A program made the translations under genes and the position numbers. This document shows positions 48,109-62,841 of a stretch of DNA of 64,000 nucleotides, one piece after another (position 1 is the stretch's first letter; every line of letters starts with the position of its first letter). Under the pieces are notes generated by a model. That model was given only the letters and a program-made list of their open reading frames with translations, was not told the origin of the DNA and ran no database searches. This DNA comes from Hyphomicrobiaceae bacterium. Lineage in GTDB: Bacteria > Pseudomonadota > Alphaproteobacteria > Rhizobiales > Hyphomicrobiaceae. The DNA is taken from the NCBI GenBank assembly GCA_031429105.1, contig JANOYV010000090.1:2161-66160 (forward strand), written 5' to 3'.

Positions 48109-49194
48109 TTGCGCGACTATTTGACCTTGCACGCGAGCCAGAGCCTGGCCCTTGGTGGGTTTGTGATCGGGCTGTTGCTTGGTGCCTTGGTGTTTCGCAC
48201 CAATTTTTGCGCCATGGGCTCGATTTCAGATGCCGTCTCGTTCGGTGACTACCGACGCTTGCGGGCGTGGCTCCTGTCAGGTGCCGTCGCCATAATCGGT
48301 GCACAGTGGTTGCAGCATGCGGGCGTAGTTGATCTGTCCAAGTCGATGTATCTCAGTCCGACGTTGAATTGGCTGGGCCACCTGTTTGGCGGTCTCCTAT
48401 TCGGCTTCGGCATGGTCTTTGGCGGCGGCTGCGGCACCCGCAACTTGGCCAGGGTCGGCGGCGGCGATGTCCGTTCGCTTATTACACTCGTGGTGCTGGG
48501 GATTTCTGCCTACATGACCATGACCGGAATACTGGGCCCCCTGAGAGTTGCCATGGAGCAAGCAACCGCACTCCCTCTGGGCGTTGCTAGTCAAAGTTTG
48601 GCCGACATTGGTGGCCGCCTTTTCAACGCGAAGTCCGGTGCCGCAATCCCGATCACCACCGCCGCCGTTGTCGGGATCATAATCGCCGCTTGTTTCACGG
48701 ATGCGAAATTCCGAGCCTCGCCCGTGCACATTCTATCTGGCATCGGAGTGGGCCTTTGCATCGTGGCTGGCTGGGCCTTGACCGGGCTCACCTTTGACGA
48801 ATTATCGGACAAGCCCGTTGCCCCCGTGTCGTTGACCTTCGTGCGCCCGACCGGCGACACCTTGGAATGGCTGCAGCGCTCGACGGCATTAGGATTGCCC
48901 GGCTTTGGCGTTACCTCAGTGTTCGGCACGATCCTGGGTGCGTTCGCAATGGCGATGGCATCCGGGCAGTTTCGCGTCACCACGTTTTCAGATCGAGGCG
49001 ATACCTTGCGGCATCTCGGAGGTGCCGTCTTAATGGGCGTGGGCGGCATCATGGCACTTGGCTGTACGATCGGTCAGGGCATCACTGGAATGTCGACGCT
49101 TGCGTTAGGCGCATTTCTGACATTCGCCGGTTTGATTGCCGGTGGCATACTCGGCATTCGCGCTCTCGAAGCACTGTTAATACGCGACACCTAG
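48109..49194 (+). CDS. YeeE/YedE-family sulfur-compound (thiosulfate-type) transporter
   Basis: Two repeats, each with a conserved Cys context (..FRTNFCAMGSISD.., ..GGGCGTR.., ..ALGCTIGQG..). The TTG at 48109 follows GGAG. The ORF-track start at 47971 adds a non-hydrophobic, Cys/Arg-rich extension. Confidence 0.8.
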   Translation: MRDYLTLHASQSLALGGFVIGLLLGALVFRTNFCAMGSISDAVSFGDYRRLRAWLLSGAVAIIGAQWLQHAGVVDLSKSMYLSPTLNWLGHLFGGLLFGFGMVFGGGCGTRNLARVGGGDVRSLITLVVLGISAYMTMTGILGPLRVAMEQATALPLGVASQSLADIGGRLFNAKSGAAIPITTAAVVGIIIAACFTDAKFRASPVHILSGIGVGLCIVAGWALTGLTFDELSDKPVAPVSLTFVRPTGDTLEWLQRSTALGLPGFGVTSVFGTILGAFAMAMASGQFRVTTFSDRGDTLRHLGGAVLMGVGGIMALGCTIGQGITGMSTLALGAFLTFAGLIAGGILGIRALEALLIRDT

Positions 49195-49212
49195 CGCACT
49201 GTGGCACAGCGA

Positions 49213-50895
49213 TTATTTTGCCAAAGCACCGACTCGCCCGATTGGGAGGGTCTTGCCCTGACTGAGCAGAGGGCGCTGCAAGACACCGGACAGTTTGCGC
49301 GCAGAAAATCCGGTGCGCTGGGCTGCGTAAACGAAAGCCTCGGCACTATCGACGGTGCCATCACCGTTGCCGATGGGTGCGAGGTCGGCGTGCCCTGAAA
49401 GTCCTGCAATCCAGTACCGCGTGAATAACGATAAGCCCGTCTCCGCATCAACAAGCGTGCGCTGGTCGCGGTCGGATGCTGTCACCACGGTCAGACCACG
49501 AATGGCAAGCCGTGGCATAACATTTACCCGCGTTTCAGGCGCATTCGGCGCCATGATCGGACTCGATGGAGCGTTGGCGAAATCGACCTCCAGCACAAGC
49601 GTGACGGGACCAGCGCCCATCCGCATCAAGTTCTGATAAAGCGCATCAACCGCATATCCGGTGGTCCGCTCCCGGCGAAAAACCGCATCCGACGGCAACA
49701 AATAAGCTTCTCCATCCTCGCCGCTAATTGCGCCCAGACCCGACATGAACACGAAGATTGGACTGCCTGCTGCGTCCTTCAATCGCTCAGACAACAAACC
49801 TTTTGGGTGCCCGCTGCGACCAAAGACACCTTCCAATTCTGCCCGCGTTGGATCTTTCAGCTCGATCACTCGGTTGCTGCGAAATCCCAATCTCTCGGTC
49901 AATAGCGCGTGGACGCCTGCGGCGTCGCGATCCGCGACCGGACGGCGTGGCAGCCCGTTTGAATAGCCAGTAACGCTGATGACGACAGCAAACGCACCAT
50001 GCGGGTCGCTGGGCCGAACATCGCGACGAAACAAATTGCGGGTGCCACGCAGGACGTCACTCATCACTAAGCCCGTGGCCTCAGGCTTGGTGCGCGCGAT
50101 CCGGCGTGTATCGGGGCACAGTGTTAGATTTCCGGCCTTTTCGATACGGGCAATGTCATCAAGCCCCAACTGCCCTGTGTAAGGAACGCACGCCTTGCAC
50201 CAAGTCAGGCCGAACCGCTTTTCAAAACCCGTTACATCCTCACGATTAAGGTCGGATGGCTGATCCAAGCACGGCAATTCACATTGCGCTATCTCAACCC
50301 GAGCACCATTGCTGCGCACCAGGATTTCTCGCAGTTCAGCAGGCAGGCAAAGCGAGGAGGCGTCCGTCGCCAACGGCGATGCCAGCGGGCGTGCCGTATC
50401 GCTCGCGCTGGAAGCTAAGATTGCAGGGCTTGGAACAGACTTGACGATGGCATCAATCGGTGTGCGCATGACGATGATCGAAGGGCTTGCCGCTGCATTG
50501 CCAAACCGATCAAGGTATCCCCCGCCCGCACTCCAGGCAGATCGACATTGGCGCCACAAAACGGCATGGAGCGCCCAGTCCTGAGCGACGTCATCGCTCT
50601 TCAACTGCATATCATCGCGCAAACGACGCAGTGACTTCACCGTGGCCTGGGTCATGCGCCCACTCTGGCGACCTTCATAAAGGCCCAGTTGCCGCAGGCA
50701 ATATTGAACACGGCCGGCGCGTAGCAGTGGCCGCTTGTAGATCTTCGCCAAACCGCCGGTGGTGGACGCCCCATTGAAACCCTTAATCGAGCCCTGGCCT
50801 GCACTTTGGGCATAGGCGGTCGCCGTGCCAACGAGCACCGCGATCACGCAGCCTACGGCCCAATTCTTTGCACACGGTCGCGGATCGCGATCCAT
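49213..50895 (-). CDS. exported caspase-fold pseudoprotease with a peptidoglycan-binding-like module
   Basis: A signal peptide (..VIAVLVGTATAYAQ) is followed by the PG_binding-like ..RVQYCLRQLGLYEGRQSGRMTQATVKSLRRL.. and a Cys-rich linker (..WCKAC..). The C14-like core (..AFAVVISVTGY..IFVFMSGLGAISGEDGEAYLLPSDA..VTLVLEVDFA..VVTASDRDQ..) has Leu (49735-49737) where the catalytic His sits and Phe (49579-49581) where the catalytic Cys sits. Confidence 0.7.
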   Translation of the reverse strand: MDRDPRPCAKNWAVGCVIAVLVGTATAYAQSAGQGSIKGFNGASTTGGLAKIYKRPLLRAGRVQYCLRQLGLYEGRQSGRMTQATVKSLRRLRDDMQLKSDDVAQDWALHAVLWRQCRSAWSAGGGYLDRFGNAAASPSIIVMRTPIDAIVKSVPSPAILASSASDTARPLASPLATDASSLCLPAELREILVRSNGARVEIAQCELPCLDQPSDLNREDVTGFEKRFGLTWCKACVPYTGQLGLDDIARIEKAGNLTLCPDTRRIARTKPEATGLVMSDVLRGTRNLFRRDVRPSDPHGAFAVVISVTGYSNGLPRRPVADRDAAGVHALLTERLGFRSNRVIELKDPTRAELEGVFGRSGHPKGLLSERLKDAAGSPIFVFMSGLGAISGEDGEAYLLPSDAVFRRERTTGYAVDALYQNLMRMGAGPVTLVLEVDFANAPSSPIMAPNAPETRVNVMPRLAIRGLTVVTASDRDQRTLVDAETGLSLFTRYWIAGLSGHADLAPIGNGDGTVDSAEAFVYAAQRTGFSARKLSGVLQRPLLSQGKTLPIGRVGALAK

Positions 50896-50972
50896 TCGCT
50901 AACTCGTCTCAGTAACTAGCTGCGATATCGATACAATTTGAAGCAACGAAAACACCTCGCTCCAGGTACACG

Positions 50973-53303
50973 CTACCTGACATCGTAGACAATCGCGGTT
51001 CGAGCTTGCAGCTCTGGTACCGCGCGCGCATCGGTTGGAGCCACATCTGCCGAGCGCCCCTTAGCGCGCCTTTGCGGCCGCGCACGCGGCGTCTCAATCG
51101 ACTTCTGGAACCGCGCCGTTGTACCTGGAAGCTGAGCTAAATGCGCGCGCCAATCCCCCAACATAGTAAAGCGCTGCCGCTCGAAATCGTGCTGTAGACC
51201 CTCCGGCGATTTGGACCCGGTCTGACAAATGCCGATCAGCGTCTCTCGCCCTTTGTCACGCAGGCGGAACTGGTAGGCCGCACCGCCGGACGGCAACAGC
51301 AGTTCCTTGCCCGCGACCAGCAAGTTGTTCTGCTCAAACTCGTTCGGAAACAAAACCGTCGCCTGGCCCGAACGATCAAGGCTGATCAACGTCAAGTAGC
51401 AATCCTGATTGGCACGTGCATGGAAAGTCGCAAGATCGCCCGACTGGTAGATGTCCGATTTGGACCACAGCAGCAACTCAAAGTCTGCACGAGGCTCCAG
51501 CGGCACTTCAACTTTGACAAGTGTTTCCGGGGCTCCGCCGTCTGGTGCAAGACGCATTAGAATCCGGTCAGCTTCTGCCCTTGATGCCGCAGCCGCCATT
51601 ACACGGCGCCCCGAAACTGCGAGTTCTGTCGGCAGTCGCATCAGTCGATCGCGCGTCTCCGGTACGGTCAATCCGGCTTCGGCAGCTAACCGCGCGAGGC
51701 CCACGTCCTTGGCGTATTCTCGACCGAGTGCTGCAACGGGCTCAAGGCCGTCGATCAGCAAATTTGGATCAATGCCAGCCTTACGCTGCGCTGCCGCGTA
51801 CCGTTCCTGATCCTCAAAGACCAAGGTATCAAGCTCGGCCTCAGGTGCGTAAAGCTGGAGGACCATGTCCTTAAGCTCACGCGACGCCGCCGGATCAGTT
51901 TCAATGGCTCCACGCATACTATCCTTGACCGCAATAGGCCCGACACGATGACACCCCATGCACGACTGCCCGTTGCCGACCGGGCCAGCCATTGCCATTT
52001 CGTCGCGTTCGACGGCTTCGGGGCTGAAATCAACCCGGTCTCCACGCGCATCATTCAGCGAATAGGCAAAAAAACCATTTGGCAACGTGAACATCGCCTT
52101 CACGCCATCATGCTTGAACGGCACTTTCACAGTATTTGATGCCGTCGGCCCCAGCGGATTGGACGCCAGTTTCTGCCGCCCCTCGCTCGTTGCAAAATCG
52201 TAGGTCAGCCATAGGCTACCGGTTCGCGTCGGATGTCGTTCAACAAGTCGATTGGCCCGCGTAACGGTTGAGACTGCAAGCCCCGCCCGTCTGGCCCTCC
52301 CCGATTTGATGTTAGCGTCAATGTCGACATTCAGGATCCGTTGCAGATTCGCCAACCGCCCTGGCAGACCAAGCAATCGCGGATAGAGCGGGGTCGTCAT
52401 GGCGGCATGGGCGAACCAATCGCCACGCAGTGCAGGCATGGGCGTACCGGTCTGTCGCCGCACGATCTCGCTAAGGCGCGCCGAAGCCAGCGTCGCATAG
52501 GGTTGGGCCTGGATCAGTTTATCCCAATGAGCGCCAACCCAGCCTAGTTCGCCCAGATCAAGTTTCAGCACAGTACCCTCGGAATCGATTACCTCGAGTC
52601 TAATCGGCTCCGGACCCCATGAAAGCGTATTAATGACCTTCGTGATGGCTTGACGATAGCCCGCTAGTGCATCGGAATCGACACAGTTGTTGGCTAAATG
52701 CGTCAACGTTATAAATCGTATGTCTTTACGCTTTTCTTCCGCAATCGAAGCCAGACCAGCCAAAACAGCTTGATCGACTTGCCCCTGAGTGATCGTCCGA
52801 CGCGCTGTACAGGTTTGCGTCGGTTGCGCCAGATCAAGTATCCAGTCGCGGACGGCTTGGATTGCTTCAGCAGTCGGCGCCACATCGAGATCGACGGTCG
52901 CGTGATTGCGCAACATGATTGTATAGAGCGGTGAAGCGTCGGGAACGCCAGGCGTCACCAATGTTGCCTCACGGGCCACATAGTCGAGCGCCAGAATGTT
53001 TGCAAATGGCCGGGCGGCAGCTGGAATCTTCAGACGCCCGGTTTGATGGCAGCGCGCGCAGTGGCCGTCAAACACGGCATAAGCCTTTGCCGCCCGGACA
53101 TCGCTCGGCGGCTGCGGCACAGGGTCGGCGGCCAATCCCGCTGGAATCTCAAGTGGGGCGACATCAGGCGGCGTTTCAGGCGCAGCCGACAGTGACTGCA
53201 TGGCCAACAGGCTTAGCGCGACCGCAGTTAAAGCAGCGGCGACCCCGTTCCAACCAAAAAACACCTGCGCCAATTTCCGCATTTCCACAACGCACCCACT
53301 CAC
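50973..53303 (-). CDS. exported protein with two CxxCH haem-c attachment motifs and a DUF4384-like C-terminal domain
   Basis: 776 aa with a signal peptide (MRKLAQVFFGWNGVAAALTAVALSLLAMQSLSA). CARCH lies at 53046-53060 and CMGCH at 51948-51962. The C-terminal ..LLLWSKSDIYQSGDLATFHARANQDCYLTLISLDRSGQATVLFPN.. resembles DUF4384. The start is the GTG at 53303 or the ATG at 53282. Confidence 0.7.
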   Translation of the reverse strand: MSGCVVEMRKLAQVFFGWNGVAAALTAVALSLLAMQSLSAAPETPPDVAPLEIPAGLAADPVPQPPSDVRAAKAYAVFDGHCARCHQTGRLKIPAAARPFANILALDYVAREATLVTPGVPDASPLYTIMLRNHATVDLDVAPTAEAIQAVRDWILDLAQPTQTCTARRTITQGQVDQAVLAGLASIAEEKRKDIRFITLTHLANNCVDSDALAGYRQAITKVINTLSWGPEPIRLEVIDSEGTVLKLDLGELGWVGAHWDKLIQAQPYATLASARLSEIVRRQTGTPMPALRGDWFAHAAMTTPLYPRLLGLPGRLANLQRILNVDIDANIKSGRARRAGLAVSTVTRANRLVERHPTRTGSLWLTYDFATSEGRQKLASNPLGPTASNTVKVPFKHDGVKAMFTLPNGFFAYSLNDARGDRVDFSPEAVERDEMAMAGPVGNGQSCMGCHRVGPIAVKDSMRGAIETDPAASRELKDMVLQLYAPEAELDTLVFEDQERYAAAQRKAGIDPNLLIDGLEPVAALGREYAKDVGLARLAAEAGLTVPETRDRLMRLPTELAVSGRRVMAAAASRAEADRILMRLAPDGGAPETLVKVEVPLEPRADFELLLWSKSDIYQSGDLATFHARANQDCYLTLISLDRSGQATVLFPNEFEQNNLLVAGKELLLPSGGAAYQFRLRDKGRETLIGICQTGSKSPEGLQHDFERQRFTMLGDWRAHLAQLPGTTARFQKSIETPRARPQRRAKGRSADVAPTDARAVPELQARTAIVYDVR

Positions 53304-53375
53304 TCAGTCCGCCCCAGCGGCGTGACATATAGCGACCGCCCACGGTAGCGAATAGTGCAACAACTGAATTTGCTC

Positions 53376-55289
53376 TCAGCCCGTTATCGCAAGTGCCTTT
53401 AGGGCATCCCTTGTTGTGCGGTCAAAAAGGCCCGTGACACGACCCTTGTAGACGCCCATCGACGTCAGGCGTTTTTGGGTGGCACGTCGTGTTGCAAAGC
53501 TCCAATGATCTTTCATGATCATTGCGTCGGCTGAAGCGGCAGCTTGAGTCCGTGCACCGCCATCACCTTCCACTTTCAGCGCTTGGAGCGATGCGACAAG
53601 GTATTCCGCCGCTCGTCCCGGGTTGCGTTCTACAATCCGGCCCTCGTCGTGCAGGTTGGCGAGTTCGCGCAGAGCGCCCGAGTGCCGCTTTTCCACCGCA
53701 GCGTTGAGCCAACGGATCGCTTCGACCCCGTTGGTTGGACCGCCTTCGCCGCGCATATGCATAAGGGCAAGATTGAACATAGCTCGCGGTTGGCCTTTCT
53801 CTGCTGCAAGCTCGTACCATTTTCGGGCCTCGACATGATCTCGAATGACGCCTTTGCCTTGCGCATACAAATAGCCAAGGCTTGCCATGGCGTGACTATC
53901 GCCTTTGTCGGCCGCCAATCGATAGAGGCGTAAGGCTTCGACCAAATTACCAACGACACCATCGCCGAACTCGTAAAGTGTGCCAAGCGAGGCCTGAGCC
54001 GCCGTGTGATCTGCGTTGGCCGCTTTCTCATACCATGCTGCTGCCTCCGCAATGTTGCGGGCGACACCACGGCCTTTGTCGAACATGCGCGCAAGGTTGT
54101 ACATGGCTGTAACGACGCCGCGTTCAGCCGCGACCCGATAAAGCCGTGCCGCCTCGACGAGCATCTCTGGCTTATCGCCAGCTGCCTCAAGTTTGACCGC
54201 GCGCTCGAACGCACCATCGGCCCCGCCTCGACCGGCCGAAACATCGTTCGAGCCGGTTTGCCACCACGACCAGCCCGTTGGCCGTCGCTCAAGTTGGGCT
54301 AGCTTATAGTGGGCGAGTTCCTCATAAGCCCCGCCTGGATAACTCTCGATGTAACGCTTGAGCGCCGCTGGGTCCTCGGTCGCCTTCACACGATCCCATG
54401 CTGCGATCTCGCTCAGGCGACGCTCGTTTGCTTCTCCCAGTGGTAAAGACGGTCGGCCGCTTGGCTCCTGAGCAACGGTTTTCGCCCGGAAAATGAAGTT
54501 ACCGATCAGAGACGAGTGTTCCCACGGGATTTGTCGGTTCTGGGTCACGGCCAGAACCATCTCACGGGTTTGCTTGAAGACCTCTTCAACAGCCAAGCCA
54601 GGAATCGGGATCGACCGCGCCAGCGCTGCGGTAAATGGGCTGTGTCCATCGCTCCCATCCTGTGCGACCTCGCCTGGCGCGGTCGCATATGCGATCAGCG
54701 TTCCAGCAGGCGCAGATACCGGCGCCAACCCTCGTGATAACGAGCGAACCTGCGATTCATAGGGATTGTTGCGGCACGCATCGAGGATCGCGATGTTGAT
54801 CCGGCTGGCCGCCCCCTTCATGCTGGCCAACAGCTCGGACAAATTGATGGCCTGGAGTGCCACTTCACCCTCGGCGGTGATATCTGCGCCAACGGGGATT
54901 AGATAATTCTGTCCCCCCACTTGCACACCGTGCCCAGCATAATAGAAAACCCCGACTGAGTCAGGACGCCGCAATCGTCGGGCAAATTCCGTAAACGCCT
55001 GTCGCATCGTTTGCATGTTGGCGTCGGTGTGTTTGATAACATCGAAACCGACGCCCTTCAGCGTGCGCGCCATTAGCTCGGCATCGTTCTTCGGGTTGGC
55101 GAGCCGGGCTGACGCATACTCGCTATTGCCGATCACTAACGCAACGCGCGTTTCCGCCCGCAATGGTCCACTTGCAGCGATAGCCAGGGCGAGCATTGCG
55201 CCGACGATCGCCCGGCCCACACCGACCCGATATCGTTTCCAAAGTGGCATTATACCTTCACTGCGATCGGTTGCCGTGGCAGCACCCAT
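53376..55289 (-). CDS. exported caspase-family (peptidase C14) protease with Sel1 repeats and a C-terminal peptidoglycan-binding-like module
   Basis: A signal peptide is followed by ..RVALVIGNSEY..FYYAGHGV.. (His codon 54930-54932) and ..NIAILDACRNNP.. (Cys codon 54774-54776). At least four Sel1 repeats follow (..AMYNLARMFDKGRGV.., ..ASLGTLYEFGDGV.., ..ASLGYLYAQGKGV.., ..AMFNLALMHMRGEGG..). The C-terminus is ..LTSMGVYKGRVTGLFDRTTRDALKAL... An alternative ATG lies at 55250. Confidence 0.85.
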   Translation of the reverse strand: MGAATATDRSEGIMPLWKRYRVGVGRAIVGAMLALAIAASGPLRAETRVALVIGNSEYASARLANPKNDAELMARTLKGVGFDVIKHTDANMQTMRQAFTEFARRLRRPDSVGVFYYAGHGVQVGGQNYLIPVGADITAEGEVALQAINLSELLASMKGAASRINIAILDACRNNPYESQVRSLSRGLAPVSAPAGTLIAYATAPGEVAQDGSDGHSPFTAALARSIPIPGLAVEEVFKQTREMVLAVTQNRQIPWEHSSLIGNFIFRAKTVAQEPSGRPSLPLGEANERRLSEIAAWDRVKATEDPAALKRYIESYPGGAYEELAHYKLAQLERRPTGWSWWQTGSNDVSAGRGGADGAFERAVKLEAAGDKPEMLVEAARLYRVAAERGVVTAMYNLARMFDKGRGVARNIAEAAAWYEKAANADHTAAQASLGTLYEFGDGVVGNLVEALRLYRLAADKGDSHAMASLGYLYAQGKGVIRDHVEARKWYELAAEKGQPRAMFNLALMHMRGEGGPTNGVEAIRWLNAAVEKRHSGALRELANLHDEGRIVERNPGRAAEYLVASLQALKVEGDGGARTQAAASADAMIMKDHWSFATRRATQKRLTSMGVYKGRVTGLFDRTTRDALKALAITG

Positions 55290-55309
55290 CGGACCGGCCC
55301 TGTGGTGAA

Positions 55310-55323
55310 ACGAATCTATTCGT
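55310..55323. promoter_or_regulatory. perfect 6+2+6 palindrome ACGAAT-CT-ATTCGT (candidate operator) containing a GANTC site
   Basis: Read directly from the sequence. It lies 21-73 nt upstream of the candidate starts of the caspase gene. GAATC is at 55312-55316. Confidence 0.3.
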
Positions 55324-55398
55324 GCACAACCATGTGCTCAGACGTAGTGCCCGGCCAGAGGCGCTGTTGCATTGTCCACGACGTTCATGGATCAAAGC

Positions 55399-55413
55399 TT
55401 AATCAAGTATTAA
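55399..55413. promoter_or_regulatory. TTAA-N7-TTAA (CtrA-box-like) motif in an AT-rich divergent spacer
   Basis: ttaatcaagtattaa read directly from the sequence. In this AT-rich context a chance occurrence is plausible. Confidence 0.2.
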
Positions 55414-55541
55414 TATATATAAATAGAGTATTAAATTTCAAAATGGCCAGTTAAGGGCGTTTGACACCACTATTAGACTAACAAGACGTTATCGGTTACA
55501 AAAGAGATAACTGATCGATGCGATGAGTTGGCGGGGCAATC

Positions 55542-55709
55542 ATGGATCTTCAAGCAGCACAACAGATAAATGGTCGGCGTTGGTCTTGGATCAAAGTAAC
55601 CGCGTTCCTGTGTTTTGCGATCGCTTGCGGATTATTGCTGGGCTCGCTGACGTCTGCACCGACGACCAAGTATTCGGGCGTCAAACCACAACAGACATCG
55701 ATCAGATAA
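55542..55709 (+). CDS. candidate 55-aa single-TM small protein (below the ORF-track cutoff)
   Basis: From my translation: MDLQAAQQINGRRWSWIKVTAFLCFAIACGLLLGSLTSAPTTKYSGVKPQQTSIR. A G-rich SD-like GGCGGGG lies 5 nt upstream. A hairpin terminator follows about 80 nt downstream. Confidence 0.3.
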   Translation: MDLQAAQQINGRRWSWIKVTAFLCFAIACGLLLGSLTSAPTTKYSGVKPQQTSIR

Positions 55710-55789
55710 GATTTACGGGCTCATCCAACTGAGACTGAGGCGTGGCCGGCGCCATATCCGGCCTCCCATTCGACTGATCTTCCAACAGA

Positions 55790-55820
55790 CCCCACTCCTC
55801 TTGCTAAGGAGTGGGGTTTC
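55790..55820 (+). terminator. intrinsic terminator-like hairpin
   Basis: ccccactcct-cttgcta-aggagtgggg followed by tttcc. It lies between the small ORF and the 3' end of efp. Confidence 0.55.
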
Positions 55821-55833
55821 CGTTGAGCGCACG

Positions 55834-56403
55834 TCAATCCTTTGCGCGCTCGACGTAGCTGCCATCCTCGATTGTCACCACAACGCGAGTGCCGGTGCCG
55901 ATATGCGGCGGCACCATGATGCGAGCACCATTCGACAGGATTGCCGGTTTGTACGATGACGACGCCGTCTGGCCCTTCACAACTGGATCCGCTTCAACGA
56001 TTTCCAGCGTCACGCGGACCGGCATCTCAATTGAAACCGGGTTGCCGTCATGCGTGCTGACCGAGCACTTCATGCCTTCTTGCAGGTAAATCGCCTGATT
56101 TCCCAAAATGTCCTTGGACACGGTAATCTGCTCAAACGACTCCGGGTGCATGAACACAAAGCCCTGGTCGTCTTCGTACAGGTAGTTATAATCCTGCTCT
56201 TCGAGGTAGGCCCGCTCAACCTGGTCGGTGGTCCGATAGCGCTCGGTCACCTTGACGCCATCCGCAATGCGGCGCAATTCCAAGTGCGTAACCGGCGTGC
56301 CCTTGCCCGGATGAATGTTCTCGGCGTGCATAACCACGGCCAATTTGCCGGCAAGATCGAGTACATTGCCCTTGCGGATCGAGCTAGCTATGACCTTCGT
56401 CAC
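55834..56403 (-). CDS. efp: translation elongation factor P
   Basis: 189 aa with ..[22 protein letters not shown].. (the conserved PGKG loop lysine) and the KOW plus two OB-domain layout. Confidence 0.95.
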
Positions 56404-56544
56404 AAAACGTCTCCCATATCAGCGCGCAGCAGGATTGGAGCGCACGCCGTGTGCCTCCACAATCGTTGCTGGCGGTCGAATTGGCGCTGTCATTAGCCTG
56501 TTATTCGGCCAAGGCCAAGGGGCGCTCGCCCAAGGTTCGGCAGA

Positions 56545-57603
56545 ATGATCGACAAGCGCCGACGCTCACCCTGGTGGACCCCTTCGGTTCATGCTGATCG
56601 CAGACCGATCTTGTTAGCCCGCAACCGCATCAAATCTGCAATCAGGCGGTGGTTCGAAGACCAGGGCTTCGTCGAAGTGGAAACCGGCTGTCTGCAAGTG
56701 TCGCCGGGCAATGAAACGCACCTTCATGCCTTCAGGACTGAATTAATCGGCACTGACCTCACAGCGCTGCCCTACTATCTGCACACATCCCCGGAATTTG
56801 CCTGCAAAAAGTTACTGGCGGCGGGCGAAGCGAAGATATTCACCTTCGCGCCAGCCTTTCGCAACCGCGAGCGGGGTGCACTTCATGCGCCCGAATTTAC
56901 CATGCTGGAGTGGTATCGGGCGGGTGCCCCTTACGAGCAATTGTGGGACGATTGCGCTGCGATCCTGAAAATCGCGGCAGATGTGTCCGGACAAACCGAC
57001 TGGACCTATCGTGGCCGGCCCTGCGATCTAACCCAATCGCACAACTCGACGACGCTCGATCAGGCTTTTCTCCAGTTTGCCAACATAGCGCTCTACGAGA
57101 TGTTCAATGGGACGATGCCGGATGCGCCGAAGTTTGCGCGCGCCGCTCAAGGAATTGGCGTCAAAACGGCTGGCGATGACACGTGGTCGGACATCTTCGC
57201 ACGCATTTTAACGGAGCGGATCGAGCCGCGCGTCGGGCTCTACCGCCCTGAGATCTTATGCGAGTATCCAACCCATGAAGCAGCACTCGCCCGACCCACG
57301 GTGCACGACCCGCTCGCAGCCGAACGATTCGAGTTGTATGTCTGCGGCGTCGAGCTCGCCAATGGTTTTGGTGAATTGACTGATCCGACCGAACAGCGCC
57401 GCCGCTTCATGATCGAAATGGACGAAAAAGCCCGTATTTATGGCGAGCGCTACCCCTTAGACGAGGATTTTCTTTCAGCTTTAGCACACATGCCTCCGGC
57501 ATCTGGCTGTGCCCTGGGATTTGATCGGCTTGTCATGCTCGCGACAGGCGCACCGACCGTCGACCATGTTCTCTGGACGCCGCTTGCCGAACCGGGCAAA
57601 TAA
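56545..57603 (+). CDS. epmA: EF-P--(R)-beta-lysine ligase (truncated LysRS paralogue, GenX/PoxA)
   Basis: ..LLARNRIKSAIRRWFEDQGFVEVETGCL.., ..YLHTSPEF.., ..FAPAFRNRERGALHAPEFTMLEWY.., ..ELANGFGEL.. are class II aaRS motifs without an anticodon-binding domain. It is divergent from efp. Confidence 0.85.
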   Translation: MIDKRRRSPWWTPSVHADRRPILLARNRIKSAIRRWFEDQGFVEVETGCLQVSPGNETHLHAFRTELIGTDLTALPYYLHTSPEFACKKLLAAGEAKIFTFAPAFRNRERGALHAPEFTMLEWYRAGAPYEQLWDDCAAILKIAADVSGQTDWTYRGRPCDLTQSHNSTTLDQAFLQFANIALYEMFNGTMPDAPKFARAAQGIGVKTAGDDTWSDIFARILTERIEPRVGLYRPEILCEYPTHEAALARPTVHDPLAAERFELYVCGVELANGFGELTDPTEQRRRFMIEMDEKARIYGERYPLDEDFLSALAHMPPASGCALGFDRLVMLATGAPTVDHVLWTPLAEPGK

Positions 57604-57610
57604 CTAACCC

Positions 57611-58690
57611 ATGACTGGTGCTGCGCGAACCCTGACGACCATCGATCAACTGCATGCGGCGGGTGTAATCCCCCAGGCGCAACTGTCGCCATTGCGCGAG
57701 GTCGCAAACCGATACGCGGTCGCCCTGACACCAGCACTGCTTGCGACGATTGAACCTGGCGCGGCAACCGACCCGATGGCGCTGCAGTTCGTGCCCGACG
57801 CGCGCGAACTCAAACAACGTGCCGATGAGACATCCGATCCCATCGGCGATCAGTCGAACAGTCCGGTCAAGGGCATCGTGCATCGCTATCCTGATCGGGC
57901 CCTATTGAAGATTGCCAGTGTTTGCCCGGTCTACTGCCGCTTTTGTTTCCGGCGCGAGGCGGTCGGGCCTGAACACGGTGATAGCTTGTCGTCGGTCGAA
58001 CTGGCCACCGCCATCGCCTACATTGCGAACACGCCGACCATTTGGGAAGTTATCTTGACCGGCGGCGATCCGTTGATCCTGTCACCGCGTCGCATTCGGG
58101 ACGCGACACGGGCACTCGCCGCCATCCCGCACGTGAAGGTCATCCGCTGGCACAGTCGCGTGCCGGTAGTGACACCCGAACGCGTGACGCCCGAAATGGC
58201 GGATGCGCTCAGATCACCTACGCAGGCAGTCTATGTGGCCCTCCACGCCAATCACCCGCGCGAGTTCACCAAGGACGCGCGCGCCGCCTGTGCGACGCTG
58301 GTAAATCACGGCATCGTCATGGTCGGCCAAACTGTGCTGCTGCGTGGCGTCAATGACGACGCTGAAACGCTCGATGCCCTGATGCGCGCCTTCATTGAAT
58401 CGCGTGTGAAGCCCTACTATTTGCACCATCTCGACCGTGCCCCCGGAACGGCGCATTTCAGAACCACAATTGCCGAGGGCCAAAGCTTGATGCGCCGTTT
58501 GCGTGGGCGGCTCTCCGGCTTGGCGCAGCCGACCTATGTCATGGATATTCCAGGCGGCCACGGCAAAATGCCGGTCGGGCCGAGCTACTTGGAGGATCAC
58601 CAGTCCCAGCGTTACACTGTGACGGACTACAACGGCGTTCAGCATGCCTACACGGACTGCCCCTCATGCCTGACTGAAGGTTCGACATGA
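57611..58690 (+). CDS. epmB: lysine 2,3-aminomutase-like radical SAM enzyme (EF-P beta-lysylation)
   Basis: ..ASVCPVYCRFCFRRE.. (CxxxCxxC) in the KamA-family context. It starts 7 nt after epmA. Confidence 0.85.
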   Translation: MTGAARTLTTIDQLHAAGVIPQAQLSPLREVANRYAVALTPALLATIEPGAATDPMALQFVPDARELKQRADETSDPIGDQSNSPVKGIVHRYPDRALLKIASVCPVYCRFCFRREAVGPEHGDSLSSVELATAIAYIANTPTIWEVILTGGDPLILSPRRIRDATRALAAIPHVKVIRWHSRVPVVTPERVTPEMADALRSPTQAVYVALHANHPREFTKDARAACATLVNHGIVMVGQTVLLRGVNDDAETLDALMRAFIESRVKPYYLHHLDRAPGTAHFRTTIAEGQSLMRRLRGRLSGLAQPTYVMDIPGGHGKMPVGPSYLEDHQSQRYTVTDYNGVQHAYTDCPSCLTEGST

Positions 58691-59895
58691 CCAATGCCGA
58701 CGCAATTTTGGTAGGAGGCGGGCTCGCCAACGTACTAATCGCGCTTAAACTCCGGGCGGAGCGGCCCGAGACAAATATTCTTGTGCTTGAGCAGGGACCG
58801 ACCCTGGGCGCCAACCATACTTGGTCGTTCCACGACACCGATCTGACGCCCGAACAACTGCAGTGGATTGAACCACTGGTAATCGCCAGCTGGCCGCGCC
58901 AGGAGGTTAGATTTCCGACAGGTCGGCGGATCTTGGAAACCGGCTACAAATCGATTTCTTCCGAGCGTTTACACGCGGTCGCCATGGAGGTACTCGGCCC
59001 CTCGGTGCGGCTGAATTGCCCAGTTCGAGATGTGCAGGCCAACACCGTCACGCTTGGCGATGGCACCAGCTTGCAGGTCCCCCTCGTCATCGACGGTCGT
59101 GGCGCCTTGCAAAAACAGCCTTTGGCTCTCGGCTACCAGAAGTTTGTCGGGGTCGAGATCGAGACCGCCGTTCCGCACGGGCAGGCGCACCCGATCATCA
59201 TGGACGCAACAGTCCCCCAGACCGACGGCTACCGGTTCGTCTACACGTTGCCGTTCTCACCCACCCGTCTGCTGATCGAGGATACCTACTACAGCGACAC
59301 ACCGGATCTCGACCCCGGCAGCTTAGGGACCGGCGTCGAGGCCTACGCTGCCGCGCAAGGTTGGAAGGCTGCCAAGATTATCCGTCGCGAAGCTGGTGTG
59401 TTGCCGATCACGCTCGCTGGCGATATCGATGAACACTGGCGCACGATGGGCCTGGACATCCCCCGCTCGGGCCTGCGCGCGTGGCTCTTCCATGCGACGA
59501 CCGGCTACAGCTTTCCAAATGCTGTCCGTCTCGCCGAGGAACTTAGCCGGGCACCGAACCTGTCATCGGACGCGATCGCTCGCCTGATCGAGAAGCGCTC
59601 TCGCGAGACCTGGAAATCCCAGGCCATCTTCCGGTGGCTGAACCGTTCCCTGTTTCTGGCAGCCGACCCGCCGGGGCGCGTGCGCATCCTCGACCGCTTT
59701 TACGCGAAACTCCCGACGCCGGCGATTGAACGGTTCTATGCTGGCACGTTCCGCAAATCGGACATTGCCATGCTGATGGCCATCATGGCGACCAAACCAC
59801 CTGTGAACATTGGTCGCGCGATTTCGTGCCTCAGCGAAAGCTCTTCGTGGGCGTTTGCCGCGAAGCATCGTTCCACAACGTCCGAATTAGGGTAA
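58687..59895 (+). CDS. crtY: lycopene beta-cyclase (CrtY type)
   Basis: ..AILVGGGLANVLIALKL..GANHTWSFHDTDL.., ..IMDATV.QTDGYRFVYTLPFSPTRLLIEDTYY.., ..LPITL.G.., ..FHATTGYS.. align with Pantoea CrtY as I remember it. ATGA overlap with the epmB stop. Confidence 0.9.
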   Translation: MTNADAILVGGGLANVLIALKLRAERPETNILVLEQGPTLGANHTWSFHDTDLTPEQLQWIEPLVIASWPRQEVRFPTGRRILETGYKSISSERLHAVAMEVLGPSVRLNCPVRDVQANTVTLGDGTSLQVPLVIDGRGALQKQPLALGYQKFVGVEIETAVPHGQAHPIIMDATVPQTDGYRFVYTLPFSPTRLLIEDTYYSDTPDLDPGSLGTGVEAYAAAQGWKAAKIIRREAGVLPITLAGDIDEHWRTMGLDIPRSGLRAWLFHATTGYSFPNAVRLAEELSRAPNLSSDAIARLIEKRSRETWKSQAIFRWLNRSLFLAADPPGRVRILDRFYAKLPTPAIERFYAGTFRKSDIAMLMAIMATKPPVNIGRAISCLSESSSWAFAAKHRSTTSELG

Positions 59896-59904
59896 GCTCG
59901 CCCA

Positions 59905-60846
59905 ATGGATGCCATCGTCGAACATAGCCGCAAACTGATTGAAAAGGGCTCGAAGAGCTTCGCCGGTGCCGCGCGCCTGTTCGACGACGACACGCGCGCA
60001 TCTGCTTACATGCTTTATGCGTGGTGTCGCCATTGCGACGATGTGATCGATGATCAAGACTTGGGCTTCAAGCGCGCCGACGGCAGCCTCGTGCCGCAAA
60101 CCGAGCGGCTCGCTGACCTGACCGCGAAAACGCAAGCCGCAATCGTTGGTCAAGCAGACGATCCGGTGTTTCAGGCACTAGCACGCGTGGTCGCCAAACA
60201 TGAAATTCCAGCACGTCATCCCATGGAGCTGATCGAAGGCTTCCGCATGGATGTGGAGGGACGTCACTATAAAACCGCCGACGATACCTTGTCCTACTGC
60301 TACCATGTCGCTGGTGTCGTTGGCGTCATGATGGCGATGATCATGGGCGTGCGCGACCGGGCAACATTGAACCGCGCATCAGACCTAGGCCTCGCATTCC
60401 AGTTGACGAACATTGCCCGCGATGTCGTGCCCGACGCCATCGAGGGGCGGGTGTATCTGCCGTCCGACTGGCTCGATGAGGCAGGCCTGACAGCGTCTGA
60501 CATCGCGAAACCGGAAAACCGCGAGGCGGTATTCATGGTCACGCGTCGCCTACTTGATTTGGCCGATAGCTATTACAAGTCTGCCCGCTACGGCCTACCG
60601 GATTTGCCGATCCGCGCGGCCTTCGCCATTGCTGCTGCACGCCGCATTTATCGACAGATCGGCTTGCTCGTGCGCAAGCGCGGCGCTCACGCATGGGATA
60701 CTCGTGCCGGCGTCAGTAAACGGGGCAAGATCGCGCAAGCTGTGCTTTCCAGCGCCTCGATCGGGCGGGCCCACGCGAGCCGGGCGGTCAAAGCCCAACC
60801 GACCCGCGATGGTCTGTGGACCATGCCAGGATTAGGCACGATCTGA
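59905..60846 (+). CDS. crtB: phytoene synthase
   Basis: ..GSKSFAGAARLFDDDTRASAYMLYAWCRHCDDVIDDQ.., ..YCYHVAGVVGVMMA.IMGVRD.., ..DLGLAFQLTNIARDV... This is a near-colinear match to CrtB. Confidence 0.93.
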   Translation: MDAIVEHSRKLIEKGSKSFAGAARLFDDDTRASAYMLYAWCRHCDDVIDDQDLGFKRADGSLVPQTERLADLTAKTQAAIVGQADDPVFQALARVVAKHEIPARHPMELIEGFRMDVEGRHYKTADDTLSYCYHVAGVVGVMMAMIMGVRDRATLNRASDLGLAFQLTNIARDVVPDAIEGRVYLPSDWLDEAGLTASDIAKPENREAVFMVTRRLLDLADSYYKSARYGLPDLPIRAAFAIAAARRIYRQIGLLVRKRGAHAWDTRAGVSKRGKIAQAVLSSASIGRAHASRAVKAQPTRDGLWTMPGLGTI

Positions 60847-60851
60847 ACACT

Positions 60852-61607
60852 TCAAGATGATCGTGTGCGGGTAGCCCGCGCTGCCGGCAACCGCCACCAG
60901 GGAACGCCTGGATAGAGATGGTGTTCGTGGTGATAGCCGAAATGAAAACACGTCAACAGTGACAGCCACGCCGGATAATCATTGCTGCGCGCCTTGTGAC
61001 GGTCAGGGAACGCGGGATCATCCGGCACGTGCGGCAGGTAGGTGCCGAACGTGAACAGCTGCAGCGATGATAGCACCGCTGGCAAAGCCCAGAACAGCAG
61101 GACGTTCTGAACCGGCGCTCCAAGCAGCAATATGTAGGTCCAGTTCATCACCGCGAGCAAGCCGAGTTGCCCCCAGGAGAAATACTCGCTGAAGAACTTC
61201 AAATACCACGGCCAGAATTTATGCGGGTGGGCATCGTGGAAGTCGGGGTCACCGGCCGTCCCCGCATGGCGATGATGCAGATGATGCTTCGGGTTCAAGG
61301 CTTGGAAATTGAAGCACGCGTAAAGCACCAGGCAGATCTGCCCGATCACGCGATTGAGCCGCGGTTGAAACGGCACCAGCGATCCGTGCATGCAGTCGTG
61401 GGCCACAATGAATAGCCCGACGCACAACCACGTCTGCAGCAGCACCACACCGACGGCGGGCAGTACCCCAAGGCTGGCCCACGAATAGAAAAATACCGCT
61501 CCAATGTGGACGATCAACCATGCAACGATCACGGCAATTGCCAGCGCTAGCCCGATCGCCGCCTGACGGCGCGGTGCCAGATCTAGTGATGTCGCGTTTG
61601 TGTCCAT
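60852..61607 (-). CDS. crtW: beta-carotene 4-ketolase (CrtW type di-iron oxygenase)
   Basis: His boxes ..AHDCMHGS.., ..HHLHHRH.., ..HHEHHLYP..WWRLP.. are colinear with Paracoccus CrtW as I remember it. The ATG at 61607 (MDTNATSL..) lies 7 nt after the permease stop. The ORF-track start at 61658 would overlap the permease gene by 44 nt. Confidence 0.9.
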   Translation of the reverse strand: MDTNATSLDLAPRRQAAIGLALAIAVIVAWLIVHIGAVFFYSWASLGVLPAVGVVLLQTWLCVGLFIVAHDCMHGSLVPFQPRLNRVIGQICLVLYACFNFQALNPKHHLHHRHAGTAGDPDFHDAHPHKFWPWYLKFFSEYFSWGQLGLLAVMNWTYILLLGAPVQNVLLFWALPAVLSSLQLFTFGTYLPHVPDDPAFPDRHKARSNDYPAWLSLLTCFHFGYHHEHHLYPGVPWWRLPAARATRTRSS

Positions 61608-61614
61608 GGAGCCC

Positions 61615-62841
61615 TTATATCGTGCGTCGCGCGACCATGTGCGCGACAAACAGCCCACTCAGACCAATGCCGCTTAGAACAATCCACGGCACGACCATGG
61701 CAGATAAGGCATCGGCACGTGAAAAAATCGAGGCATAAGCCTCCAAGGCCCAGGTGTTTGGCGTCACCCATCCCAACGCCTGAACAGGCGGCGGCATCAG
61801 ATAACGCGGCACCATGCTGCCGCCAACCGCAGACACCACCAGGATTAACATTTGTCCGAGCGTTTGGGCTTGCTGCTTTGATCGACACATTGTGACAAAC
61901 GCCATGGCAAGACCGCTGGCCGCCAACGCAGCCGTCAGTGATGTCACCGTCCATGGACCAATATGCTGCCCCAGGGCCACACCGAACACGAACCAAGCCA
62001 CGAGATAAATCACCAGCACCTGCAGAAATCCCTGCAGAATTAGAAACAGGAACTTGCCATCAATCAAAACCCCGACGCCGCCAGGGCTCGACGCTAGCCG
62101 GTCGAGCAGGCCACTTTCTCGTTCTTCGAGAAAGCTCATGGCGCCTGTTAGAGCCGAGAATAGCAAAAACAGCATGGCGACACCGCCAGCATAGTAGGTC
62201 ACGGCGGGTGCTGCCTCCACACGGGCGACCGCATCAAGCCGTTCAAACAGCTTATCTAACCGAAAGCCTTGCGGATCGGCTTTGGCATTGGGCGCGCGCA
62301 TCGCCTCCAAGCCCTTTTGCATACGCACTTTCTGTTCGGCACTGAACGGGGCAATTTTTCGATCAATGAGATCCCCAATACTACGAACGGCAGCATCGGG
62401 AAGTGCTGCAAAATAGGCTTTTTGGAGCGCCCCTTGCAGCATCGTCACGGCGATCTCGCGGCCAGGATCACCGACAAGCACGAGTGGGGGCGCGCCTTCG
62501 GCGCCTAAATCGTCCAAGGGGCGGCCGTCACGACGAATGATCAAGCCGACATCGGCCTCTCCTTGGCGCACCATTTCTTGAATCTTTTCGGCAGATTGAA
62601 TCAATCCACCAACTTGGGAGAGGCGGGGATCGGCCAGTAGCTGGTCCGACAACCGCTTTGACGTCGCATCGGCCCGCAAATCCGCAATTGCCAATCGCAG
62701 ATGCAAGTCGCCGCCGCTGGCGCCAGCAAAAATATTGGCAAAGATCACGAACACGATTCCGGGCAACAAAAAGCCCATGGCCAGTGCCGCGCGGTCTCGC
62801 ATCAGACTGAGCGCCATGACCTTGAAGACAGCGAAACGCAT
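61615..62841 (-). CDS. ABC-2 type transporter permease
   Basis: 408 aa with an N-terminal TM helix, a large extracytoplasmic loop and a C-terminal cluster of five or six TM helices (ABC2_membrane layout). It directly abuts the ATPase gene. Confidence 0.85.
   Translation of the reverse strand: MRFAVFKVMALSLMRDRAALAMGFLLPGIVFVIFANIFAGASGGDLHLRLAIADLRADATSKRLSDQLLADPRLSQVGGLIQSAEKIQEMVRQGEADVGLIIRRDGRPLDDLGAEGAPPLVLVGDPGREIAVTMLQGALQKAYFAALPDAAVRSIGDLIDRKIAPFSAEQKVRMQKGLEAMRAPNAKADPQGFRLDKLFERLDAVARVEAAPAVTYYAGGVAMLFLLFSALTGAMSFLEERESGLLDRLASSPGGVGVLIDGKFLFLILQGFLQVLVIYLVAWFVFGVALGQHIGPWTVTSLTAALAASGLAMAFVTMCRSKQQAQTLGQMLILVVSAVGGSMVPRYLMPPPVQALGWVTPNTWALEAYASIFSRADALSAMVVPWIVLSGIGLSGLFVAHMVARRTI

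Follow-up and report, generated by a model that had tools for sequence, protein, structure and literature searches.

A two-CxxCH/DUF4384 protein is the constant element of related loci that carry caspase-type proteases and a dead caspase

Three neighbouring genes for exported proteins

The stretch of DNA analysed here (64 kb; hereafter, the window) comes from an uncultured soil alphaproteobacterium and carries three neighbouring genes on the minus strand, on which all features given below also lie. Gene A (53376-55289) encodes an exported orthocaspase-type protease of 637 aa, gene B (50973-53303) an exported two-CxxCH/DUF4384 protein of 776 aa, and gene C (49213-50895) an exported pseudo-orthocaspase of 560 aa. 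Coordinates, the shared strand and the gaps of 72 nt (A/B) and 77 nt (B/C) reproduced exactly those of an earlier note made from the sequence alone. B probably starts at the ATG at 53282, 21 nt further downstream; this is the start chosen in the public gene call and gives a protein of 769 aa and an A/B gap of 93 nt. The upstream region of A is conserved among relatives. A sigma-70-like promoter match (TTGAAA-18-TATATT, 55412-55441) is located ~120 nt upstream of A, within ~110 nt of non-coding sequence (about 55400-55520) that has hardly changed among six relatives, and none of four terminator-like matches falls in the A/B or B/C gap. The short gaps, the single promoter-like site upstream of A and the gaps free of terminator-like matches thus support an operon-like layout.

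Each of the three products carries a single hydrophobic segment at the N terminus, with small residues at -3/-1 sites after it, and a heuristic scan found no further TM-like windows in any of them, in agreement with the signal-peptide-like starts noted earlier. The mature forms of A, B and C contain 1, 8 and 8 Cys, respectively, counts that would fit an oxidising compartment.

In A, a signal-like segment (residues ~21-45, heuristic) precedes a C14 domain (residues 47-265, nt 54495-55151) that matches Peptidase_C14 (PF00656) with E 1.6e-42 and 146.2 bits, well above the gathering score of 21.4. The dyad motifs YAGHG and DACRN are intact, 14 A-type caspases all share H120 and C172 as well as D69 and D170, and the catalytic Cys is the sole Cys of the mature protein. 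Sel1 repeats follow in 4 stretches (residues ~384-566, nt 53592-54140; E 2.4e-38). The active dyad and the four or more Sel1 repeats ascribed to A were therefore recovered. Its peptidoglycan-binding-like tail (residues 602-632, nt 53394-53486) fared less well, as PG_binding_1 scores 19.8 bits there, below the gathering score of 23, although PF01471 is found in many A homologues. Among solved structures, the MALT1 paracaspase is nearest to A in sequence (E 6.5e-13). Orthocaspases, metacaspases and paracaspases cleave after Arg/Lys, and A would be expected to do the same, assuming the P1 specificity of its family; the invariance of D69 and D170 and the kinship with Arg-specific MALT1 point indirectly in this direction. 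The A family comprises at least 6,779 proteins, mostly encoded without B.

From N to C terminus, B consists of a signal peptide, a cytochrome c-like domain, a domain of ~430 aa with a second CxxCH, a DUF4384 beta-sandwich, an Arg-rich loop and a terminal strand. The family of B is large, widespread and unannotated, with 2,237 cluster representatives at E<=1e-30. The two haem-c attachment motifs, C82-A-R-C-H86 in the cytochrome c-like domain (53046-53060) and C448-M-G-C-H452 in the ~430-aa domain (51948-51962), hold up as described earlier: both are invariant in 36/36 homologues, down to 33% identity, and we infer that B binds haem at these two sites. A putative sixth haem ligand near the first motif is H134 in 25/36, and M135 replaces it in other clades (10/36). 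Cytochrome c Pfam models match residues 71-103 only and below threshold (Cytochrome_CBB3, 20.1 vs 27 bits; Cytochrom_C, 20.2 vs 21.3), and such weak matches occur in 35/36 family members; no curated cytochrome c family in Pfam or NCBIfam scored above threshold on B, and no relative was found in the PDB. The region around the second motif defines a ~430-aa protein domain with a conserved haem site, which corresponds to no Pfam family and for which a PDB sequence search and Foldseek returned no match, that is, no solved structural relative.

The C-terminal part of B was correctly called DUF4384-like. PF14326 matches residues 619-692 with E 1.9e-15 and 57.1 bits (gathering score 27), within a beta-sandwich spanning residues ~600-725 (nt 51129-51506), and the match recurs in 36/36 family members; C635 and C693 of this region are invariant. 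Foldseek returned only weak Ig-like and macroglobulin-domain-like matches for the sandwich. Between DUF4384 and the last strand lies a disordered Arg-rich loop ('...RARPQRRAKGR...', residues 728-760, nt 51024-51122) with pLDDT <50, after which the C-terminal strand (residues 766-775, nt 50979-51008) is modelled at high confidence; its R768 is nearly invariant. An Arg/Lys cluster occupies the loop position in 36/36 homologues.

C begins with a PG_binding_1-like three-helix bundle (residues ~56-123, nt 50527-50730): the AF2 model shows the bundle at residues 60-123, but the Pfam call is weak (PG_binding_2, E 0.078). The Cys-rich linker with WCKAC was found as described, as a domain with six invariant Cys (residues 183-260, nt 50116-50349). 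The remainder (residues ~295-556, nt 49228-50013) scores 18.9 bits with Peptidase_C14, below the gathering score of 21.4. Nevertheless, hhalign against A-type caspases gave a probability of 97.6% (E 3e-12), and Foldseek aligned the AF2 model with MALT1 and caspases (E 5e-9, TM about 0.65-0.69), so that we regard the caspase fold of C as established from profile alignment and modelling, despite the sub-threshold Pfam match. As claimed, both catalytic residues are missing. The His position is Leu ('SGLG'), as in 22/23 aligned family members, and the Cys position falls in an alignment gap, with zero Cys past residue 260; more distant members of the family retain the His, not the Cys. The acidic positions of the specificity pocket are kept, D324 aligning with D69 of A and E436 with D170, and all four are invariant in their own families. 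By alignment, C is not a recent paralogue of A, since the two are 18% identical and differ in architecture.

Caspase-like proteases are used by several defence systems, and one could imagine a conflict or programmed-cell-death module in which the exported caspase kills or lyses the cell, or attacks competitors, upon envelope damage or phage. A gives a weak match (6.4e-11) to the generic PADLOC 'caspase' model and sub-threshold matches to the EACC1-associated caspase model. However, no system-specific component was matched, PADLOC returned nothing for B or C, and NCBIfam NF047832 (EACC1-associated caspases) scores A at 52.4 and C at 34.3 bits against a cut-off of 140. The locus is also flanked by efp/epmAB on one side and by YeeE, ornithine decarboxylase and agmatinase on the other, in stable housekeeping synteny and with flat GC content, and no mobile-element, NTPase or toxin partner was found at it. 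We consider such a role very improbable.

The two-CxxCH/DUF4384 protein is the constant element

Across about 100 related loci, from metagenome contigs with shared ancestry, B is the constant element. The full A-B-C triad occurs only in the window and in L005, L007, L011 and L013, that is, in close relatives with B identity of at least 67%; it does not co-occur beyond them. Syntenic relatives have B and C without A (L009, L010, L099), A and B without C (L004, L006) or B alone (L012). A without C is also present in L017, and A without B in L097 and L098. Independent look-ups that started from C found B immediately upstream in 6/6 cases, in three genomic contexts, and at least four of these lacked A; the B-C pairing persists at B identities down to about 31-37%. 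C is a small family dedicated to B as its partner, and the dead caspase is genetically locked to B, not to the active protease A.

This distribution bears on the proposal that B, using its haems to sense redox or envelope stress, gates A, with C acting as a regulator or decoy of A, for instance in a heterodimer like cFLIP/caspase-8. In its favour, the operon-like layout would put the active protease, its dead paralogue and the cofactor protein on one transcript. Nevertheless, C follows B, often in loci without A (at least 4/6 look-ups, and L009/L010), so that regulating or decoying A is unlikely to be its primary role; A also occurs without C (L004, L006, L017) or without B (L097, L098), and the low identity and distinct architecture of C argue against recent paralogy.

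Among 56 loci with full flanks, the neighbours of B were an S8 subtilase in 18, a caspase in 7, a C-family gene in 6, caspase plus C family in 4 and caspase plus S8 in 2; 19 had none of these, and in this class partners may lie at other sites of the genome. On the B tree, at least five separate clades include members with a caspase-fold neighbour. At the density that a survey reports for Alphaproteobacteria (PMC3501461), ~0.41 caspase homologues in every 1,000 proteins, ~0.05 caspase genes would be expected among 112 flanking genes, against 19 loci observed, although these loci are phylogenetically non-independent. Chance adjacency of three unrelated exported-protein genes might account for a triad restricted to close relatives, in which A and C are each dispensable in syntenic genomes. 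It would not account for the 6/6 B-C pairings in three contexts and at low identity, nor for caspase neighbours that exceed the background expectation by orders of magnitude (with the same non-independence of loci), and is extremely improbable.

The proteases beside B differ, being Sel1-, TPR- or PG_binding-type caspases or S8 subtilases, all exported, and a peptidoglycan-binding-like module recurs with B, either fused to the caspase, as here, or as a separate OmpA-like gene. Comparing the neighbours of B across clades thus reveals a recurring set in which B is joined by a peptidoglycan anchor and by an exported protein that is either a protease or a pseudoprotease. The genes of another B clade are arrayed in the order ECF sigma, anti-sigma, S8 subtilase, OmpA-like protein and B, with overlaps or short gaps; HMMs of these four neighbour families found no homologue in the 64-kb window. 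At L096, an A-type caspase gene is followed by one for a 232-aa protein that consists only of a signal peptide, DUF4384, poly-Arg and the terminal strand; it is 38% identical to residues 602-775 of B, has an Arg/Lys cluster at the loop position and lacks a haem motif. At L001, a FecR-domain gene overlaps B, and at L002 a cytochrome b561 gene lies upstream of B.

The sister-clade ECF sigma/anti-sigma operons are typical envelope-signal modules and, with the FecR-domain overlap, would suit the gating of A by B. However, the window has none of that module's genes, and, taken with the separate occurrence of A and C, we judge this gating scheme improbable.

A possible partner for bacterial caspases

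B may primarily be a periplasmic redox enzyme or electron carrier, with the proteases and the pseudoprotease belonging to the same envelope regulon or acting in maturation or turnover, and with no specific B-protease mechanism. The two invariant haem sites and the large conserved domain are consistent with this, as are the size and spread of the family, the one third of full-flank loci in which B stands alone and the cytochrome b561 gene at L002. It leaves unexplained why C is found only beside B (6/6), why a haem-less DUF4384 protein follows an A-type caspase at L096 and why unrelated protease types are repeatedly found beside B in separate clades. We consider this explanation unlikely.

Our own proposal, which we hold tentatively and at somewhat less than even chances, is that A, B and C form one operon, whose three products are exported by Sec, associate with the cell wall and centre on B. 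Caspase-fold partners would recognise B by its DUF4384 domain and Arg-rich loop. C, with an acidic pocket but no nucleophile, would bind B without cutting it, and its putative N-terminal PG-binding module would tether B to peptidoglycan. A, an optional addition, would nick B within the Arg-rich loop or cleave proteins held by B, and the cut would change the state of B or release it. The haems would serve a redox or ligand-dependent function of B's own. Since B is the constant core and different exported proteases stand beside it in different lineages, bacterial caspases may have in B a natural partner or substrate, with its Arg-rich loop as a candidate docking or cleavage site. The L096 pair, published fusions and the C-terminal domain of Csx30 speak for DUF4384 as the protease-linked part. 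In contrast, B homologues that lack a neighbouring protease gene (19/56 loci) have the Arg-rich loop as well, which counts against it as a protease site; its role may be a different one, for example in binding anionic polymers of the envelope.

A more far-reaching version of this proposal would make two-haem DUF4384 proteins redox- or ligand-sensing hubs of an unrecognised envelope pathway. The Ig-like DUF4384 domain and the Arg-rich loop would dock exported caspase- or subtilisin-type proteases in trans, as Ig3 of MALT1 might in cis, and the haem state would decide whether proteolysis proceeds. The output in one clade would be the ECF sigma/anti-sigma switch; in the clade of the window, the peptidoglycan-anchored dead caspase would hold the hub in place. 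In full, including docking, haem gating and outputs, this is a doubtful scenario; if true, it would provide the first defined physiological partner of bacterial orthocaspases.

Orthocaspases and pseudo-orthocaspases are abundant in bacteria, above all in Alphaproteobacteria of the Rhizobiales type, and, to our knowledge, their substrates and physiological roles are essentially unknown. Our analysis nominates a concrete, testable partner, namely the DUF4384 module with its exposed Arg-rich loop on a large unannotated family of exported two-haem proteins, and places members of this family from other lineages in ECF sigma operons. Should the link prove functional, caspase-type proteolysis in the bacterial envelope would be connected with redox cofactors and with anchoring to peptidoglycan.

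Comparison with known systems

In line with the earlier note, no characterised system matching A-B-C was found in PADLOC, NCBIfam, Pfam, the PDB or the literature. MALT1, which among solved structures is nearest to A in sequence and to the C model in fold, is a eukaryotic, cytoplasmic protein in which the caspase domain is followed by an Ig3 domain. It cleaves after Arg, and its catalytic Cys is preceded at position -2 by an Asp, as in D170-A-C172 of A. Its Ig-like domain is fused in cis, and an interaction of the DUF4384 sandwich with a caspase domain in trans would be speculation by analogy. Envelope signalling operons with ECF sigma and anti-sigma factors resemble the arrays in which one B clade is embedded, but such genes are not present within the 64-kb window; the main text of PMC7826278 was not found to describe an ECF sigma context of B homologues.

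Surveys of prokaryotic metacaspases report Sel1 in 6% and a putative PG-binding domain in 1.6%, and note multi-caspase operons in Alphaproteobacteria (Asplund-Samuelsson et al. 2012, PMC3501461). A, with its putative PG-binding tail, has exactly the architecture of these catalogued Sel1/TPR/PG-binding orthocaspases; the surveys, however, list architectures only and describe no partner or substrate like B.

The association of DUF4384 with caspases, mentioned in the earlier note, is real. Some Csx30 proteins, which are cleaved by caspase-like Csx29, end in a DUF4384 domain (bioRxiv 10.1101/2022.08.17.504292). As in the type III-E CRISPR Craspase, where caspase-fold Csx29 (TPR-CHAT) cleaves the separately encoded Csx30, DUF4384-bearing in some cases, in a flexible linker, a caspase and a DUF4384 protein are encoded side by side here. 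Craspase is, however, cytoplasmic, RNA-guided and linked to cas genes and RpoE, whereas our locus has export signals and no cas genes, and we take the resemblance as no more than a hint of a protease-substrate relationship. Alphaproteobacterial fusions of trypsin, a pseudo-p20 with a QC dyad and DUF4384 (Klemencic et al. 2019, PMC6426788) likewise combine an active protease, an impaired caspase domain and DUF4384 in Rhizobiales-type bacteria. In contrast to those fusions, the parts are separate genes here and the active protease is itself a caspase; C lacks both dyad residues and adds a putative PG-binding domain and a six-Cys domain, and DUF4384 forms one protein with a two-haem domain of ~530 aa. 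Associations of proteases, pseudo-caspases and DUF4384 are thus already known, and A-B-C is a variant of them.

Layout of the cluster and its upstream region

The three genes described in the earlier note were recovered at precisely the coordinates given there, with their main domains or folds and signal-like N-termini. All three are encoded on the minus strand: gene A (53376-55289; 637 aa), encoding an exported caspase-like protease; gene B (50973-53303; GTG start, 776 aa), encoding an exported protein with two CxxCH motifs and a DUF4384 domain; and gene C (49213-50895; 560 aa), encoding an exported, catalytically dead caspase. The public gene call of B uses an ATG start located 21 nt downstream of the GTG, giving a protein of 769 aa. 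The gaps between A and B and between B and C are 72 and 77 nt, respectively, and none of the four terminator-like matches in the region falls inside either of them. Upstream of A, a 540-nt intergenic region follows efp and the efp hairpin, and it holds the single sigma-70-like promoter match found in the cluster region (55441-55412). On its 3' side, C faces a convergent YeeE/Sulf_transp gene. GC content is flat over the whole window, and both flanks consist of housekeeping genes, namely efp/epmA/epmB beyond A and those for YeeE, ornithine decarboxylase and agmatinase beyond C. We regard a defence or cell-death module as very improbable here, since PADLOC gave it no support and the locus lies in housekeeping synteny.

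The region 5' of A carries further features. A non-coding stretch of approximately 110 nt (window positions ~55400-55520) is near-invariant in six relatives despite their diverged flanks; it contains the promoter-like site at 55412-55441 and an inverted repeat, GTTATC-N12-GATAAC, at 55488-55511. This stretch may be a binding site for a regulator. Between efp and A, in divergent orientation to A, a 55-aa ORF (55542-55709, plus strand) encodes one hydrophobic TM-like segment and has no Pfam match. The region it occupies is conserved in six relatives, and in one relative, locus L013, a 75-aa gene is called at this position. An Rfam search of 48800-56600 returned nothing relevant. Approximately 8 kb from the cluster there is a gene for a DsbD_TM/CcdA-type cytochrome c biogenesis or thiol-reductant transporter (40592-41407, minus strand), and the ORFs at 58687-61658, after epmA/epmB, resemble by eye lycopene cyclase, phytoene synthase and a desaturase/ketolase-like membrane protein, and may be carotenoid genes.

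Anatomy of the three exported proteins

According to a heuristic script, each protein has a single hydrophobic segment at its N-terminus, with small-residue -3/-1 sites after it, and lacks any further TM-like window. By the same script, the mature forms of A, B and C contain 1, 8 and 8 cysteines, respectively, the single cysteine of A being the catalytic one. In Pfam searches, A matched Peptidase_C14 (residues 47-265, 1.6e-42) and four Sel1 stretches (2.4e-38), while its PG_binding_1 match (residues 602-632) scored slightly under the gathering threshold; this domain (PF01471) is present in many A homologues. The dyad, H120 and C172, is invariant among 14 A-type caspases, and among solved structures MALT1 comes closest to the caspase domain (E 6.5e-13). 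Ortho-, meta- and paracaspases cleave after Arg or Lys. The A family is very large: a cut-off of E<=1e-30 retrieved at least 6,779 members.

C presents a different picture. Its Peptidase_C14 score in Pfam is sub-threshold (18.9 bits), yet hhalign identifies the C-terminal half as a homologue of A-type caspase domains (97.6%, E 3e-12), and Foldseek-type matches of the AF2 model (pLDDT 73.6) are to MALT1, caspases and metacaspases (E 5e-9). A Leu occupies the position of the catalytic His, the alignment shows a gap where the catalytic Cys would lie, and no Cys follows residue 260. Distant family members retain the His and also lack the Cys. The invariant D324 and E436 of C align with D69 and D170 of A, which are acidic S1-pocket positions of that protease. 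The N-terminal part of C comprises a three-helix bundle with a PG_binding_1-like pattern and a domain with six invariant cysteines that includes the WCKAC motif. The family is small, with 39 proteins in a word-indexed search. We rejected a recent duplication of A as the origin of C: the aligned domain is 18% identical, the domain order differs and C belongs to a separate, narrow family.

B matched DUF4384 (1.9e-15) in Pfam, and only sub-threshold cytochrome c models at residues 71-103. The two CxxCH motifs (C82/C85/H86 and C448/C451/H452) are conserved without exception in 36 homologues with identities as low as 33%, as are two more cysteine pairs, C165/C207 and C635/C693; the candidate sixth haem ligand is H134 in 25 homologues and M135 in 10. 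The AF2 model is confident (pLDDT 82.9, pTM 0.83), with residues 60-590 ordered, a beta-sandwich at 600-725, a disordered Arg-rich loop at 728-760 and a confident terminal strand at 766-775. Pfam scans of all 36 homologues revealed no family for residues ~160-600 and none of the planctomycete PSCyt/PSD families, and residues ~160-590 found nothing in NCBIfam, PDB sequences or PDB folds. The best PDB sequence hit with the B profile had an E of 0.2, and Foldseek gave no PDB match at E<=1e-3. Its weak Ig-like or macroglobulin-domain matches are confined to the DUF4384 part, so we draw no conclusion on a likeness to alpha2-macroglobulin.

The B family is large: when 1.84 billion cluster representatives were searched with the profile, 2,237 of them matched at E<=1e-30. 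Shorter variants of ~510-590 aa (for example P0120, P0360 and P0373) match the profile in two stretches, ~30-305 and ~510-771; judging from these alignments, they apparently lack the mid-protein part, including the second haem site. The Arg-rich loop was considered as a feature peculiar to protease-linked B genes, and this was ruled out because it is present in all B clades; B homologues without a nearby protease gene also carry it.

Neighbours of B homologues

The earlier note asked whether the A-B-C triad co-occurs beyond close relatives. A genome-contig search with the single B protein yielded 8 close relatives, and we compared these eight loci, together with further look-ups sharing the efp...YeeE context. 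The order A-B-C occurs in L005, L007, L011 and L013; within the same synteny, L004 and L006 carry A-B, L009, L010 and L099 carry B-C, and L012 carries B alone. Every gene combination is thus found in syntenic loci, and the triad is not a unit. In L011 (7782-11916) and L014 (4518-8554), the B and C homologues are each split into two ORFs, which could reflect assembly-error frameshifts or real pseudogenisation.

Sampling was widened by a metagenome scan with the B alignment, and 96 loci with a B homologue were annotated by HMMs and neighbour clustering. Among the 56 with full flanks, B stood beside an S8 subtilase in 18, a caspase in 7, a C-family gene in 6, a caspase and a C-family gene in 4, and a caspase and an S8 subtilase in 2; no such neighbour was present in 19. 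On the B distance tree, at least five separate clades have caspase-fold neighbours, and these are of differing types, including Sel1 and TPR caspases, a divergently transcribed C14+PG_binding_1 gene and two- or three-caspase clusters with an OmpA-like gene. Against a background of ~0.41 caspase homologues per 1,000 alphaproteobacterial proteins (Asplund-Samuelsson et al., PMC3501461), caspases are very strongly enriched beside B, with the reservation that the loci lack phylogenetic independence. Chance adjacency of the three genes is, in our view, scarcely credible. That B is a redox enzyme with which proteases are merely loosely associated is unlikely, but deserves to be taken seriously.

Individual loci illustrate this variety. 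In L001 (6271-10987), a divergent C14+PG_binding_1 caspase lies upstream of the B homologue, whose stop codon is overlapped by 4 nt by a FecR-domain gene. The B homologues of L082 (758-9760), L086 and L075 are flanked by two or three individual caspase genes whose dyads are intact, and by an OmpA-like gene. In L002, from a basal B clade without protease neighbours, a cytochrome b561 (Ni_hydr_CYTB) gene upstream of B (7088-7846) hints at an electron-transfer partner.

One B clade carries a five-gene array in the order ECF sigma factor, anti-sigma factor, S8 subtilase, OmpA-like gene and B (L038:3191-9166; also L029, L033, L036, L037, L039, L045-L048, L050, L056, L064, L073, L076, L079, L084, L085, L091 and L095). 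The first three genes overlap, the other gaps measure 84-131 nt, and a TPR-caspase is sometimes inserted before B. None of the ECF-module genes is present within the 64-kb window. The main text of the ECF reclassification paper (PMC7826278) mentions no subtilase, caspase or OmpA contexts, and we found no description of this array. Comparing the neighbourhoods, the recurring set consists of B, an exported protease or pseudoprotease and a putative peptidoglycan-binding module. In the window this module is part of the caspase proteins themselves, whereas elsewhere a separate OmpA-like gene encodes it.

We then asked which partners track B. Six look-ups begun from C homologues, spanning three genomic contexts and B identities down to ~31%, all showed a B homologue immediately upstream on the same strand, and at least four lacked A. 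This points to the C family as an old pseudo-protease lineage that diverged jointly with B. Two of the three A-based look-ups (L097 and L098) lacked B. In L096 (6001-8678), the gene directly downstream of an A-type caspase (53% identity to A) encodes a 232-aa protein that is 38% identical to B residues 602-775 and contains only a signal peptide, DUF4384, poly-Arg and the terminal strand, with no haem domain. Consequently, the caspase link belongs to the DUF4384 and tail module and not to the haem domains. Further downstream, L096 carries ornithine decarboxylase and multihaem cytochrome genes.

A B-centred association and known systems

The cluster is real, but it is not a fixed three-gene machine: A-B-C represents the form that a B-centred association of exported proteases with DUF4384 takes in one lineage. 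The earlier proposal that C acts as a regulator or decoy of A, with B as a redox gate, fits poorly with the finding that C accompanies B and not A, and we consider it improbable. Instead, we tentatively propose a mechanism built on the observed anatomy and linkage. B would be an exported haem protein, and its DUF4384 sandwich together with the exposed Arg-rich loop would form the element recognised by caspase-fold partners. C, being dead but retaining the acidic pocket positions and carrying a putative PG-binding module, would bind B uncut and keep it fixed to the cell wall. As a facultative addition with an expected Arg/Lys cleavage, A might nick the B loop or cut what B presents. The chief weakness of this docking model is that the loop also occurs in B homologues without a protease gene close by. 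What the finding offers is a specific, testable candidate partner of bacterial caspases and an undescribed haem domain, rather than a demonstrated new mechanism.

As the earlier note had supposed, the cluster corresponds to no characterised system: neither PADLOC nor NCBIfam produced a match at the level of a system, and our literature search found no description of the B family or of the A-B-C gene set. Its components do have relatives. DUF4384 is often fused to protease domains, and some Csx30 proteins, substrates of the caspase-like Csx29, have a C-terminal DUF4384 domain (bioRxiv 2022.08.17.504292). Caspases with Sel1 repeats or PG-binding domains, as well as multi-caspase operons, have been catalogued and are uncharacterised (PMC3501461). 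Alphaproteobacterial trypsin/pseudo-p20(QC)/DUF4384 fusions are described, and pseudo-orthocaspases with YS, YA, FS, QC or HA dyads are abundant in Rhizobiales (PMC6426788); in contrast to these, the C family has Leu or His with no Cys, a state that falls outside the listed dyads.
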